Source of the DNA: Alphaproteobacteria bacterium
GTDB lineage: Bacteria; Pseudomonadota; Alphaproteobacteria; GCA-2731375
DNA length: 64,000 nucleotides
NCBI GenBank assembly: GCA_965232515.1
Contig: CBDDPY010000002.1
Coordinates: 4,704,001-4,768,000 of the forward strand
Reading direction: 5' to 3'
Below, in pieces: positions 189-63,119 of this stretch. The notes under the pieces were generated by a model. The model was not told the DNA's origin and made no database searches. It saw only the letters and a program-made list of their open reading frames with translations. The first letter of the stretch is position 1; every line of letters starts with the position of its first letter. A program made the translations under genes and the position numbers.

Positions 189-2066
189 ATGCGCGAGCAC
201 AGTCAATTCACCCTCTTGGCGACCCGGCGGTTCCTGCCGATTTTCCTGACACAGTTTCTGGGCGCCTTTAACGACAACCTGTTCAAGAACGCCCTGCTGA
301 TCCTGGTGGTGTTCTCGGCCTCGGCCGAAACCGGCAATTTCCTCGTCAATCTCTGTGCCGGCCTGTTTATCCTGCCATTCTTCCTGTTGTCCGCGCTGGC
401 CGGTCAGGTCGCCGAGAAATTCGAAAAAGCGAAGCTGATCCAGCTTATCAAGCTGGGCGAAATCGGGATCATGGTGTTGGGCGCCATCGCGTTGATGACC
501 GACAACCTGCCGATGCTGATTGCCCTGCTGTTTTTGATGGGCGCGCAGTCGACGTTCTTCGGGCCCGTGAAATACAGCATTCTGCCGCAGCAGTTGCGCG
601 ATCACGAACTGGTCGGTGGCAACGGTCTGGTCGAGATGGGCACGTTTCTGGCGATCCTGTTCGGCACCATTGCCGGCGGCGTCCTGATCGCTCAGGACGA
701 CGGCCGCACGATCGTTGCGGCAGGCGTGGTCGTCTGCGCCATTGCCGGCTGGCTGACCAGCCGGCCGATCCCGAAGGCGGCGGCCGCGGCGCCTGATCTG
801 AAGATCGGTTGGAATCCGGTGACGGAGACGATGAACATCATCAGGATCGCCGGCCGGCGGGCCGCGGTGTTCAAGTCGATCCTGGGCATCTCGTGGTTCT
901 GGATGCTGGGCGCCGCCTATCTGACGCAGCTGCCGAACTTCACCCGGCTGACGCTGGGCGGCGACGCCGAGGTCGTGACGCTGCTGCTGGCCGTGTTCTC
1001 GGTGGGTATCGGCGTCGGATCGCTACTGTGCGAACGGTTGTCCGGGCACAAGGTCGAACTCGGTCTGGTACCGTTCGGGTCGATCGGTTTGAGCCTCTTC
1101 GGCTTCGACCTCTACGTTGCCGCCAATACGCCCTGGCCGGACGAGACGCTGCGCGGCCTGCTGCCGTTCGTTCAGGACCCCGGCAACTGGCGGGTGCTGT
1201 TCGACCTGGCGATGATCGGCGTGTTCGGCGGTTTCTATATCGTGCCGCTCTACGCCATCATTCAGAACCGGACCGAGCCGGAGTTCCGCGGCCGCGTGAT
1301 CGCCGCCAACAACATCATGAACGCGCTGTTCATGGTCGCCGCGGCGCTGCTCGCCATTCTTCTGCTGAATGTGGCGGGCCTGTCTATTCCCGTGTTCTTC
1401 CTGGTTATGGCGATCATAAATGTCGGTGTCGCCATCTACATCTACAGCCTGGTGCCGGAATTCTTCATGCGCTTCCTGGTCTGGCTGCTGACCAGCACGC
1501 TGTACCGGATCCGGCGCAGCGACCTCGACAAGATCCCCGAAGAGGGCGCGGCGCTACTGGTGTGCAACCATGTGAGCTACGTCGACGCGCTGATCATTGC
1601 CGGCTCGTGCCGTCGCCCGGTGCGGTTTGTGATGGACGCACGGATCTATAGCCTGCCGGTGCTGCGCTTTATCTGCCGGACGGCCGGCGCCATCCCGATC
1701 CTGTCCCAGCGGAAGGATCCGGAAACCTACGAGCGGGCCTTTCAAAAGATCGACGATTACCTCAAGGCTGGCGAGGTGGTGTGCATCTTTCCGGAAGGCA
1801 TGCTGACGCTAGATGGTGATATCAACGAATTTCGGCCGGGCGTGATGCGCATCCTCAAGGAGAACCCCGTGCCGGTCGTACCGTTGGCACTGCGCGGCCT
1901 TTGGGGCAGCTTCTTCAGTCGGGCCGATCTGCGCCGCAAATTCCGCTGGTTGCGGGAGTTCAAGCTGCGTATCGAACTGGTCGCCGGGGACATGATCGCG
2001 CCCGAGCAGGTCGCGCCCGACGTTCTGCAGACCAAAGTCTCGGCCTTGCGGGGCAACTGGGCCTGA
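189..2066 (+). CDS. MFS transporter fused to a C-terminal acyltransferase (LplT/Aas-like lysophospholipid transporter-acyltransferase)
   Basis: N-terminal TQFLGAFNDNLFKNAL and multiple TM helices; C-terminal NHVSYVD (HxxxxD) and FPEG acyltransferase motifs; no AMP-binding domain. Confidence 0.9.
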   Translation: MREHSQFTLLATRRFLPIFLTQFLGAFNDNLFKNALLILVVFSASAETGNFLVNLCAGLFILPFFLLSALAGQVAEKFEKAKLIQLIKLGEIGIMVLGAIALMTDNLPMLIALLFLMGAQSTFFGPVKYSILPQQLRDHELVGGNGLVEMGTFLAILFGTIAGGVLIAQDDGRTIVAAGVVVCAIAGWLTSRPIPKAAAAAPDLKIGWNPVTETMNIIRIAGRRAAVFKSILGISWFWMLGAAYLTQLPNFTRLTLGGDAEVVTLLLAVFSVGIGVGSLLCERLSGHKVELGLVPFGSIGLSLFGFDLYVAANTPWPDETLRGLLPFVQDPGNWRVLFDLAMIGVFGGFYIVPLYAIIQNRTEPEFRGRVIAANNIMNALFMVAAALLAILLLNVAGLSIPVFFLVMAIINVGVAIYIYSLVPEFFMRFLVWLLTSTLYRIRRSDLDKIPEEGAALLVCNHVSYVDALIIAGSCRRPVRFVMDARIYSLPVLRFICRTAGAIPILSQRKDPETYERAFQKIDDYLKAGEVVCIFPEGMLTLDGDINEFRPGVMRILKENPVPVVPLALRGLWGSFFSRADLRRKFRWLREFKLRIELVAGDMIAPEQVAPDVLQTKVSALRGNWA

Positions 2067-50076: not shown

Positions 50077-50324
50077 GCCAATCTAGACCGTGGACTGGCC
50101 GATCGACGACCCCAGCCCGGCGGCGCGGCGGAAACGTCGCGCGCGGGCTCGAACGACTTGCTGTTGGGCGCCGATCTTGCCCACGGCGGCTTAAAAAGCG
50201 CCTAATCGGAGGTTGCTGATCTGGTAATTTTTTCCTAGATGCCGACGCGGCCGCCAAGCATGGATTAACCGGTCGTCAATGAATTTCCGCCACCCTGCAG
50301 GCCGGTTATGGACCCACTGGGAGT

Positions 50325-50413
50325 CCTCGAAACGGCAAACCGTCGGCAACGGCGGGACGCAAAACCTCCGGTCCGCGCGGGTTTCCGGCGTGGATAGCGG
50401 GGCTGTCGAAAGG
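50325..50413 (+). ncRNA. c-di-GMP-I (GEMM) riboswitch aptamer
   Basis: GGCAAACC-GTCG-GCAA-CGGC-GGGACGCAAA-ACCTCCGG...GATAGCGGGGCTGTCGAAA follows the GEMM-I layout (GNRA tetraloop, receptor, pseudoknot-free two-stem core) in the flagellin 5' leader. Confidence 0.88.
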
Positions 50414-50420
50414 CGTACGC

Positions 50421-51233
50421 ATGGTCAATTCCATCAATACCAACCCCGGCAGCAATATCGGGCTGCAATCTCTCAACAAGACGAATAACGGCCTCGACGC
50501 TCTGCGCGAGCGGCTGGCCACGGGCAAGAAAATCAACGGGCCGACGCCCGATCCCTCGACCTTCGCCATCGCCCAGAAGCTGCTTGGCGAAATCGGCGGC
50601 ACCGTGGCCGTGAAAGAGGGCCTGAACGCGGCCGAAGCCACCACCGGCGTCGCCATCTCCGCCGGCCAGGCCGTCTCCGACCTGCTCGTCGACCTCAAGG
50701 GCATCGCCATCAAGGCCAGTCAGGACGGCCTCGACGACACCTCGCGCCAGGCGCTGGAGACCGAGTTCAACGCGCTGCGCGATCAGATCGGCACGGTCGT
50801 CGACTCGGCGAATTTCAATGGCACCAATCTGATCGAAGCCGGCGGCGCCGGCCTTGACGTGCTGGCGTCCGAGAAAGGCGAGCGCTTCAACGTCGCCGCC
50901 CAGGACCTCAGTGCCGGCGGCCTCGGCATTGCCGGCCTGACGCTTGGCACGGCCGCCGACGCCGCCAACGCGGTCAATGCGCTCGACGCTGCGGTTTCTG
51001 ACGCCTCGGCGAAGCTCGCCGATCTCGGCTCGTCGGCCAAGCGCATCGAGACCCAGTCCGAAGCGACGACAAAGCTCGCCGACAGTCTGCGCCAGGGCGT
51101 CGGCAACCTGGTCGACGCCGATCTCGGCGCCGATGCCGCGGCGCTCGCCGCCGGTCAGGTCAAGCAGTCGCTGGGCATCCAGGCGCTCAACATCGCAAAC
51201 TCCGCGCCGCGCTACCTGACCGAGCTGTTCTAG
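50421..51233 (+). CDS. flagellin (short, 270 aa)
   Basis: SINTN...RLATGKKIN N-terminal domain; NLVDADL...QVKQSLGIQALNIAN C-terminal domain. Confidence 0.92.
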   Translation: MVNSINTNPGSNIGLQSLNKTNNGLDALRERLATGKKINGPTPDPSTFAIAQKLLGEIGGTVAVKEGLNAAEATTGVAISAGQAVSDLLVDLKGIAIKASQDGLDDTSRQALETEFNALRDQIGTVVDSANFNGTNLIEAGGAGLDVLASEKGERFNVAAQDLSAGGLGIAGLTLGTAADAANAVNALDAAVSDASAKLADLGSSAKRIETQSEATTKLADSLRQGVGNLVDADLGADAAALAAGQVKQSLGIQALNIANSAPRYLTELF

Positions 51234-51322
51234 GAGAGACATGCGCGGTGCGGTCGACCGACGTCGCCGCGCCGCAAATGGCCACATGACATCGGCCGGG
51301 CGGACGGGTATGCCTGCGCGCC

Positions 51323-52312
51323 ATGCGCGCGTTCGTCCGAGTTCTTCATCTGTCGCTATGCCTCGCCGTGCTGCCCACGGCGGCGTGGCCGCAGACCGAC
51401 CACGGCACCTTCAGCCTGCAGATCGAAAACGACCGGGTTGCCGCCACCGACCGGCACTATACGCATGGCACGCGGCTCGGCTGGGTCTCGCCCCGCGGCC
51501 AGCCGCCGGCCTGGTCGCAAACGCTGTTCGACGAGATCTTCGTTGATGTTAAGGGCGAACGGCGGCTGGGCTTCAGCCTGGGCCAGAGCATCTTCACGCC
51601 CGACGACACCGAATCCATCGCCGTGGTGGACGACGACCGGCCCTATGCCGGCTGGCTCTACGGCGGCATGGAGCTGATTGTCGAGGACGCCGACGATTTC
51701 CGCCGCGTCGCGCTGGACCTCGGCATCGTCGGCCCTTCCGCCAAGGCCGAGCAGACGCAGAACGAATTCCACGAGCTGATCGGCGTCAGCCGCTCGAACG
51801 GCTGGGACAACCAGCTCAATGACGAGCTCGGTTTCGCGCTCTTCGCCGAGCGCAAGTGGCGCGACGCCTCGCGCTTCCCCTTCGCCGGCGTCAACGGCGA
51901 CGTGACCTGGAACCTCGGCGGCAGCCTGGGCAACGTGCTGACCTACGCGGCCGCCGGCGTCGCCCTGCGTGTCGGCAACCAGCTCGACAGCGACTTCGGC
52001 CCGCCGCGCATCCGGCCCAGCCTGTCCGGCTCGGCCTTCTTCGACCCCGTGCCGTTCCGCAAATTCGGCTGGTACCTGTTCGCCGGCGTTGAGCTGCGCG
52101 CCGTCGGCCGCAACATTTTCCTCGACGGCAACACCATTTCCGACAGCCACGACGTTTCGAAAAAGCCCGTTGTCGGCGACTTCCAGGCCGGCCTGGCGTT
52201 GTTCTACGGCCGCGCCCGCCTCACCTATACCGGCGTCTTCCGCACCAAGGAGTTCGACGGCCAGCCCGAGGCCGACCGTTTCGGCGCCATCAGCCTGTCC
52301 TTCACGTTCTAG
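51323..52312 (+). CDS. lipid A deacylase LpxR-like / DUF2219 outer-membrane protein
   Basis: ENDR...DRHYTHG, GQSIFTP, DRPYAGWLY, NIFLDGN, C-terminal F. Confidence 0.88.
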   Translation: MRAFVRVLHLSLCLAVLPTAAWPQTDHGTFSLQIENDRVAATDRHYTHGTRLGWVSPRGQPPAWSQTLFDEIFVDVKGERRLGFSLGQSIFTPDDTESIAVVDDDRPYAGWLYGGMELIVEDADDFRRVALDLGIVGPSAKAEQTQNEFHELIGVSRSNGWDNQLNDELGFALFAERKWRDASRFPFAGVNGDVTWNLGGSLGNVLTYAAAGVALRVGNQLDSDFGPPRIRPSLSGSAFFDPVPFRKFGWYLFAGVELRAVGRNIFLDGNTISDSHDVSKKPVVGDFQAGLALFYGRARLTYTGVFRTKEFDGQPEADRFGAISLSFTF

Positions 52313-63043: not shown

Positions 63044-63119
63044 TGGTGGAGCCGAGGGGAATCGAACCCCTGACCTCGACATTGCGAACGTCGCGCTCTC
63101 CCAACTGAGCTACGGCCCC
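63044..63119 (-). tRNA. tRNA-Ala(CGC)
   Basis: 76 nt GGGGCCGTAGCTCAGTTGGGAGAGCG...TTCGCAA anticodon loop...GGTTCGATTCC...CCA. Confidence 0.97.

Follow-up and report, generated by a model that had tools for sequence, protein, structure and literature searches.

The 64,000-nucleotide stretch analysed here (hereafter the window) belongs to an alphaproteobacterial assembly (GCA_965232515.1, contig CBDDPY010000002.1). In the leader of an orphan flagellin gene it contains an aptamer of the cyclic di-guanosine monophosphate (c-di-GMP) riboswitch family c-di-GMP-I (GEMM-I), in which one ligand contact, position 92 in the numbering of the Vibrio cholerae Vc2 aptamer, is U instead of C. We consider it probable that this element is a c-di-GMP-I switch repressing translation of the orphan flagellin, with a pocket that is weakened and faster-releasing owing to U92 and with c-di-GMP still as its ligand. 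With its two base-specific contacts, the GEMM-I pocket is a textbook case of one nucleotide setting second-messenger specificity, and it was through a position-20 variant that signalling by cyclic GMP-AMP (cGAMP) was discovered in Geobacter. In the present element it is the other contact that has changed naturally; four genus-level groups have inherited the change, which is tied to flagellin.

A covariance-model scan (cmscan) of the whole window against all Rfam families gave RF01051 (c-di-GMP-I) as the sole riboswitch match, at 50324-50410 on the forward strand, scoring 60.6 bits (E 2.2e-9; the gathering score is 35), and a search of the entire genome recovered the same match. The match is full-length (model positions 1-87 of 87), has posterior '*' across both junction regions, and ends 10 nt before the flagellin open reading frame (ORF). 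An earlier, sequence-only reading had proposed a GEMM-I aptamer on this flagellin gene, position 20 being G and position 92 U; the analysis agrees on all three, and the landmarks then listed are all present. The parts of the element and its gene are as follows.

50323-50329, forward strand: 5' strand of P1, with the anti-Shine-Dalgarno residues C50325 and C50326.
50334, forward strand: G at Vc2 position 20 (model position 11), which reads the Hoogsteen face of G-alpha (PMC6140456, PMC5888326).
50334-50341, forward strand: GGCAAACC, a landmark read from the sequence.
50340-50355, forward strand: GCAA-capped stem (the P1b hairpin), a 6-bp stem with the GNRA loop GCAA at 50346-50349.
50354-50363, forward strand: GGGACGCAAA, a landmark read from the sequence.
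50358-50361, forward strand: C44, G45, C46 and A47; C, G, C and A are each invariant in 108 of 108 family rows.
50363-50404, forward strand: P2/P3 helix with the AG bulge, G83 being 50397.
50365-50371, forward strand: CCUCCGG, a landmark read from the sequence.
50395-50402, forward strand: UAGCGGGG, a landmark read from the sequence.
50406, forward strand: U at model position 83 (Vc2 position 92), where the consensus is C and a C normally Watson-Crick pairs with G-beta.
50407-50410, forward strand: CGAA, a landmark read from the sequence.
50407-50414, forward strand: 3' strand of P1, CGAAAGGC, holding the Shine-Dalgarno sequence AAGG at 50410-50413.
50421-51233, forward strand: flagellin gene, 270 amino acids, an orphan paralog (Pfam Flagellin_N 2.3e-21, Flagellin_C 5.2e-8).

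The assignment of positions 20 and 92 follows from the alignment. G50334 falls on model position 11, the unpaired G just 5' of the G21-C46 pair, which is Vc2 G20. U50406 falls on model position 83, where the consensus is an upper-case C and the posterior is '*', and C50407 falls on model position 84 (Vc2 93) rather than on position 92, the placement that would have undone the proposal. Model position 83 is well supported as Vc2 C92 because it lies 9 nt, with no indels, after the G of the AG bulge, which we take to be Vc2 G83, the partner of C44; because the Gs1761 contacts G74, C75 and C76 fit the consensus g-C-C, with the first C pairing; and because the RF03167 consensus leaves the C before the P1 pair 'cg' unpaired. 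The partners C44 and G83 are both present in the window (C50358 and G50397), G45 and C46 pair with C22 and G21 (50336-50335), and A47 (50361) is the intercalating adenine. The Gs1761 contact list consists of G74, C75 and C76, of which C75 pairs with G-beta (PMC5888326), and one report describes Vc2 G83U as disrupting the tertiary structure (bioRxiv 10.1101/617340). Of the contacts that characterize RF01051, the window thus has G at position 20 (G50334) and A at position 47 (A50361), and U50406 in place of C at position 92. Position 92 is a ligand contact and not a determinant of the fold, and the window's element is a pocket variant inside the RF01051 fold.

The U itself is real and not a local sequence error: the ortholog from the same genus (genome G001) also has U at position 92, and a near-identical strain, represented by a 655-nt contig from an unrelated RNA library, has zero differences between 50308 and 50541, a range that covers the aptamer. 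The single-sequence fold of 50316-50440 has a z-score of -0.01 and a minimum-energy structure that differs from the aptamer fold; such a fold is uninformative for a ligand-dependent tertiary structure. One further irregularity lies at positions 50/89, where A50364 stands opposite C50403, a non-canonical combination flagged 'v' by cmscan and possibly an A+-C wobble. In the 104 distinct copies of the family, these positions of the P2 helix read GC in 70, GU in 23, AU in 10 and otherwise in one, which is the window, and the same-genus ortholog has A-U.

The expression platform lies within the aptamer. The outer P1 pairs are C50325-G50413 and C50326-G50412, the inner ones are U50327-A50409, C50328-G50408 and G50329-C50407, and AAGG at 50410-50413 sits 7 nt 5' of the ATG at 50421; the overlap of the P1 3' strand with the ribosome-binding site that had been read from the letters is therefore there. 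No terminator-like site was found on the forward strand within 50080-51400, nor between the aptamer and the ATG. Because the Shine-Dalgarno sequence is within P1 and no terminator was found, a translational OFF switch is the likely design: the anatomy, a Shine-Dalgarno sequence in a ligand-stabilised helix with no intrinsic terminator, is that of such a platform and agrees with the earlier proposal, the direction being a prediction. All GEMM-I copies in the window's genome have the Shine-Dalgarno sequence built into P1, and all six of them, like most copies of the family, end in CGAAnGG(A). The two pairs that involve the Shine-Dalgarno sequence are C-G in 80 and 70 of the 104 distinct copies, and among the inner pairs C-G is found in 85 and G-C in 94. 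The ORF starts 6-10 nt past the model end in 76 of 108 rows and 0 to 13 nt past it in 90 of 108, most commonly at 7-8 nt.

Under this design, a rise in c-di-GMP would lead to ligand binding at the three-helix junction and to stabilisation of P1, whose 3' strand (50407-50414) would then hide the Shine-Dalgarno AAGG, so that the ribosome could not load and flagellin translation would be switched off. The pocket is canonical (G20, A47, C44-G83) save for U50406, through which G-beta would be read by a G-U wobble. Such a wobble would be expected to lower the affinity and to speed release, with c-di-GMP presumably remaining the physiological ligand. The effect may be a higher or more reversible threshold for a very abundant flagellin mRNA; alternatively, within the same reading, selection for picomolar affinity may simply have been relaxed at the flagellin leader.

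The element belongs to a larger set. Six RF01051 matches (L001-L006) are present in the window's genome (7.39 Mb, 4 contigs, 96% complete), on contig 2 (C2) at 1923480, 2470431, 3987744, 4754324, 5417810 and 5562544. Of 32 further genomes in the window's family, 28 also have RF01051, with 2-6 matches each; of 28 genomes that represent the other families of the class, one has it. In a phylum sample of 150 other genomes, nine had a match, all of them labelled 'same phylum' and none 'same class'. That this riboswitch class is uncommon in Alphaproteobacteria, as the earlier reading had it, thus holds outside the window's family in the genomes sampled (1/28, and none of the same class in the phylum sample), and within the class GEMM-I has undergone a family-specific expansion. 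A family covariance model that includes P1 and the Shine-Dalgarno sequence was built from the six copies of the window's genome. The resulting alignment has 108 rows, which represent 106 unique aptamers (two duplicate rows removed; L071 overlaps L030) from 29 genomes of one uncultured family, and structure statistics were computed on 104 distinct copies. In the consensus structure, 90.7% of cells are paired, against 26-54% for slid controls, 15 pairs show changes on both sides, and none of 500 shuffles was as good. The P1b helix is 98.1% paired, with double changes at four of its six pairs. The two-hairpin GEMM-I architecture is backed by covariation.

Across the 108 family rows, the pocket is nearly invariant except at position 92: position 20 is G in 106, position 47 is A in all 108, C44 is C in all 108 and G83 is G in 107, and position 92 is C in 94 and U in 14. 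When leaders were sorted by their downstream gene, using blastp against the window flagellin and reclassifying L095 as a flagellin leader once its ORF was read from a GTG start, the two states were distributed over the unique copies as follows, in counts that are inflated by relatedness.

Flagellin leaders: U92 in 11, C92 in 6, total 17.
Other leaders: U92 in 3, C92 in 86, total 89.

The U92 flagellin leaders span four genus-level groups (g1, g2, g4 and g6). In a flagellin protein tree rooted with Kordiimonas-type flagellins, a quick tree with several weakly supported forks, U92 occurs in both deep branches, between which the flagellins are about 53% identical, and a minimum of three C/U changes is needed over the 17 leaders. 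The flagellin loci outside the family, of Kordiimonas type and others (L107, L110-L146), gave no match to the family model and contribute nothing to the counts at position 92; the Kordiimonas-type flagellins that root the tree lack the riboswitch. The 15 aptamers from nine other Pseudomonadota genomes all have C at position 92, with L155 being under the Rfam cut-off and a gap in L152 having been read through by eye. U92 is therefore a long-lived, gene-specific state of the flagellin leader that can revert, rather than noise.

The three non-flagellin U92 aptamers are L002:1497-1599 (reverse strand) in the window's genome (G000), its ortholog L049 in G001, and L038 in G010. They lead very short ORFs, of 34 amino acids for L002 and nine (MTLRLTSPT) for L038. 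Many other family copies lead ORFs of 9-76 amino acids without a Pfam match, such as a 76-amino-acid group with MELNLSPS, and the short ORFs behind family aptamers may be leader peptides or small proteins.

Which dinucleotide the flagellin leader responds to can be approached through the cyclases of the genome. It had been suggested that U92 might mark a natural switch of altered or relaxed specificity, and that Hypr-type GGDEF cyclases or CGAS/DncV-like nucleotidyltransferases (CD-NTases) should be sought. In the window's genome, SMODS (CD-NTase) and DAC each gave no match with a working control; the DncV-like nucleotidyltransferase model also gave none, but its control was silent and this result counts little. 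The genome has 13 GGDEF domains. The residue that defines the Hypr type is Ser348 of GacA, which comes 9 residues past the sugar-face Asn and precedes the glycine of GGDEF by 24 (PMC6456294). In the window's genome this position is Asp in 12 of the 13 domains and His in one degenerate domain, and Ser or Thr occurs in none. Of the 33 genomes of the family, 3 have SMODS; a U92 copy is present in 12, and among these SMODS was found in G004 alone. The element also lacks the features of the c-AMP-GMP (GEMM-Ib) class, having G and not A at position 20, and no cGAMP synthase was found in the genome, the DncV-like control being silent. As far as domain content can tell, c-di-GMP synthesis is the only cyclic-dinucleotide synthesis detectable in the window's genome, and this context gives no support to an altered or relaxed specificity.

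Published work on Vc2 is informative on the effect of the substitution. With chromosomal Vc2 C92U, the c-di-GMP-dependent read-out was 30-fold lower and diguanylate cyclase overexpression partly restored the response, and G20 and C92 mutations mainly raised the off-rate (bioRxiv 10.1101/617340). Dissociation constants (Kd) of 0.011 nM for wild-type Vc2 and 4900 nM for the G20A/C92U double mutant have been published (PMC9049102); therefore much affinity can be lost before physiological c-di-GMP levels are reached. We favour c-di-GMP as the ligand because orthologous leaders switch between U and C, because the other aptamers of the family lead genes typical of c-di-GMP regulons, because Vc2 C92U keeps a weakened c-di-GMP response, because the pocket mutations act mainly on the off-rate, and because the affinity margin is very large. 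The genes led by the other family aptamers encode a PilZ protein, a CheY-like receiver, a ParA/MipZ-like ATPase, Sel1-repeat proteins and MlaC. In the window's genome, the aptamer at L003:1160-1489 (reverse strand) leads a 110-amino-acid PilZ-domain protein (Pfam 6.7e-6), a c-di-GMP receptor.

The reading of a weakened c-di-GMP switch has to be weighed against others. A different signal is one of them: the G20/A47/U92 pocket could read a mixed dinucleotide, G20 contacting G-alpha and U92 forming a Watson-Crick pair with an adenine, so that the flagellin leaders would answer 3'3'-cGAMP or another A-containing signal while the genome's other aptamers answer c-di-GMP. The enrichment of U92 on flagellin leaders and its retention across four genus-level groups have the look of a separate input, all 15 aptamers elsewhere in the phylum sample carry C, position-20 variants change the ligand in Geobacter (PMC6140456), and the Vc2 G20A/C92U double mutant binds c-di-AMP (cyclic di-AMP; PMC9049102). 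Yet the window's genome has neither SMODS nor DAC matches and no Ser or Thr at the Hypr position in any of its 13 GGDEF domains, SMODS is missing from 11 of the 12 U92 genomes, and close orthologous leaders carry C92 with at least three switches, each of which would have had to change the signal; Vc2 C92U is also still c-di-GMP-responsive in vivo (bioRxiv 10.1101/617340). We regard this explanation as quite unlikely. In its broader form, the U92 aptamers of flagellin leaders would be a natural GEMM-I specificity class, a mirror of the Geobacter A20 class that reads an A-containing dinucleotide through U92-A or both cGAMP and c-di-GMP; this is similarly doubtful, and if true it would imply a cyclase beyond recognition by current models.

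The substitution may also be without consequence. With affinity to spare, C and U could be equivalent at the flagellin leader, U reflecting phylogenetic inertia and no tuning. That orthologs show both states (11 U and 6 C, with at least three changes) is as expected of a free pyrimidine site, and the wild-type Vc2 Kd of 0.011 nM (PMC9049102) lies far under usual cellular levels. However, U in only 3 of 89 non-flagellin leaders indicates that it is selected against there, and the flagellin regime differs, whether relaxed or directional. Neutral toggling of this kind seems unlikely to us, and it overlaps with the weakened c-di-GMP switch, having the same ligand and mechanism and differing in adaptiveness alone. 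Another possibility concerns P1: U50406 could pair with A50330 as a fourth inner P1 pair (UCGA/UCGA), which would hide the Shine-Dalgarno sequence partly independently of the ligand and make the element a constitutive translational damper. In a list of 20 leader rows, an A directly follows the inner P1 5' strand in all (CG in 16, AG in 4), and only U at position 92 can Watson-Crick pair with that A. The same A is nonetheless present in C92 copies, so the pair shows no covariation; G20, A47, C44 and G83 stay invariant, which argues that ligand binding is kept; and folding without constraints gives no exceptional stability (z -0.01). We consider such a damper very improbable.

Several points weigh against the weakened c-di-GMP switch that we prefer. 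In the literature searched, no binding or reporter data were found for any natural U92 aptamer. The strongly non-random distribution of U92 (11/17 flagellin leaders against 3/89 others) would also fit a distinct flagellin input signal, and kin among these copies are not independent. U would Watson-Crick pair adenine, and the Vc2 double mutant does accept c-di-AMP (PMC9049102). Unrecognised or promiscuous cyclases in the window's genome are possible, and the inspection for Hypr GGDEF domains covers that genome only, one of the 12 with U92. The A50330-U50406 pair could extend P1 and alter switching. Finally, the RNA-library contigs over the leader have a depth of about 4x, DNA carry-over is possible, and they are not evidence of transcription.

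The flagellin led by the riboswitch is a fifth, divergent copy. The genome census shows FlbT, two FlaF genes and four other flagellin genes, which are mutually 75-100% identical by blastp; three of the four adjoin FlbT/FlaF at 1.889-1.894 Mb on contig 2, and the fourth is an identical copy at 1.183 Mb on the same contig. The riboswitch-led flagellin is 49-51% identical to these four and lies away from the FlbT/FlaF cluster. It is most closely related to the riboswitch-linked flagellins found within its family and next to those of Kordiimonas type. The sequence-only reading had set the riboswitch against the FlbT/FlaF control usual for alphaproteobacterial flagellins; that control is not replaced, as FlbT and FlaF are present beside the main flagellins, and the riboswitch leads only the divergent fifth gene. 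Its upstream neighbour is a divergently oriented PAS-PAS histidine kinase gene and its downstream neighbour an LpxR homologue. In several genomes of genus g6, the flagellin gene and the next gene, which encodes a Sel1-repeat protein of about 240 amino acids, each have their own GEMM-I aptamer, placing two switches roughly 1 kb from each other.

Upstream of the aptamer, one further feature was noted.

50263-50322, forward strand: conserved upstream block, a possible promoter or 5' end of the leader, from the alignment with the G001 ortholog.

Identity with this same-genus ortholog begins abruptly near 50263 and continues into the aptamer. No sigma-70-like promoter was found in 50080-51400; as a guess, a sigma-28 -10 element might be seen in GCCGGTTA at 50301-50308, though the likeness is loose. 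Parts of the stretch are covered, at a depth of about 3-8x, by two sets of contigs from RNA libraries, the 655-nt contig spanning 50150-50541, and two poly-A RNA runs had no reads on the stretch, poly-A selection being no test of transcription. The runs that hold the stretch 50150-51300 (X1-X5, X19-X24) are labelled with organisms that have poly-A selected RNA libraries, and the near-identical strain occurs in RNA libraries under a second organism label. The records suggest that a eukaryotic host or culture accompanies the bacterium.

Other GEMM-I copies show variation of their own. Tandem aptamers occur about 1.03-1.05 kb apart in L037, L042, L061 and L030/L071, and about 2.5-2.7 kb apart in L051 and L072. 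The copy at L077:1498-1595 (forward strand, genome G024) has A at position 20 (AAUAGCAAAC) with C92, the Geobacter-type cGAMP signature, and is the sole A20 copy among the 108 rows. It leads a 242-amino-acid ORF that is similar in leader and N-terminus to the Sel1-repeat genes of 238-245 amino acids, and SMODS gave no match in G024. In the phylum sample, L153 (G095 C36:975-1057 and 1197-1279, reverse strand) has two GEMM-I aptamers about 220 nt apart in a genome of 1.5 Mb, both apparently with A, not G, at position 20 as judged by eye from the alignment. In the window's genome, clan competition assigned L001 and L003 (C2:5562544-5562626 and 3987744-3987834) to c-di-GMP-I-GGC, with 62.1 and 61.6 bits against 59, although both carry A and not G at position 47; the inclusion of P1 in the variant model is the likely reason, and a mis-assignment is possible. 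Elsewhere in the window, a tRNA gene lies at 63047-63119 on the reverse strand (66 bits).

Taken as a natural series, the 11 U92 and six C92 orthologous leaders and the approximately 86 C92 paralogs allow the question of gene-by-gene tuning of affinity or off-rate to be asked. A riboswitch-led orphan flagellin coexists with FlbT/FlaF-linked flagellins in one genome, and genomes of one uncultured alphaproteobacterial family have 2-6 GEMM-I switches each, although the class is otherwise poor in them. New here are the alphaproteobacterial host family, the design with the Shine-Dalgarno sequence in P1 on a flagellin gene, and the inherited U92; the GEMM-I class itself is already known, as is GEMM-I on flagellar genes in Clostridioides difficile. 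If the ligand is still c-di-GMP, as expected, the finding is useful but incremental. The full-text literature searched held no description of a natural U92 aptamer, which may be mentioned in the supplements of survey papers, and no relevant paper on a c-di-GMP riboswitch on an alphaproteobacterial flagellin.

Among known systems, the element is closest in its parts to Vc2, the aptamer of the V. cholerae tfoY leader (RF01051), with which it shares G20, the pairs G21-C46 and C22-G45, a GNRA-capped hairpin, C44/G83, A47 and the AG bulge. The window differs in having U where Vc2 has C at position 92 and A opposite C at 50/89, and its host is an uncultured-type alphaproteobacterium. The engineered C92U and G20A/C92U mutants of Vc2 were reportedly made by Smith et al. 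in 2010. Engineered Vc2 C92U has the same pocket composition as the window (G20, A47, U92), whereas the U of the window is natural, has been passed down in four genus-level groups and goes with a single gene family. Vc2 is also an OFF switch responding to c-di-GMP, as the window's element is predicted to be, but the window's P1 holds the Shine-Dalgarno sequence 7 nt from the start, whereas Vc2 control is reported to act via RNA stability (bioRxiv 10.1101/617340).

The GEMM-Ib aptamer Gs1761 of Geobacter has the same scaffold, and a single pocket substitution shifts its specificity. There, G is changed to A at position 20 and the C that pairs with G-beta (C75) is kept, whereas the window keeps G20 and alters position 92. 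Geobacter has the Hypr GGDEF protein GacA (PMC6456294), and the window's genome shows none. The variant families c-di-GMP-I-GGC (RF03167) and c-di-GMP-I-UAU (RF03168) belong to clan CL00126 and are likewise defined by non-canonical letters at ligand contacts. They are said to have been described by Weinberg et al. in 2017, and we take their names to denote positions 20/47/92, which the RF03167 consensus, with G in place of A47, backs for position 47 only. The window reads G/A/U at these positions, and clan competition in cmscan retained RF01051.

Two further comparisons concern flagellar control. FlbT/FlaF control resembles the window's riboswitch in acting post-transcriptionally on flagellin mRNA leaders, but FlbT and FlaF are proteins, encoded beside the main flagellins, and the riboswitch leads the fifth flagellin elsewhere. 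In C. difficile, the GEMM-I OFF switch Cd1 precedes the flgB flagellar operon, and high c-di-GMP leads to less flagellar expression. Cd1, which is from a Firmicute, controls an early flagellar operon by terminating transcription, whereas the window's element, with its U92, is predicted to act on translation and on a single flagellin gene.

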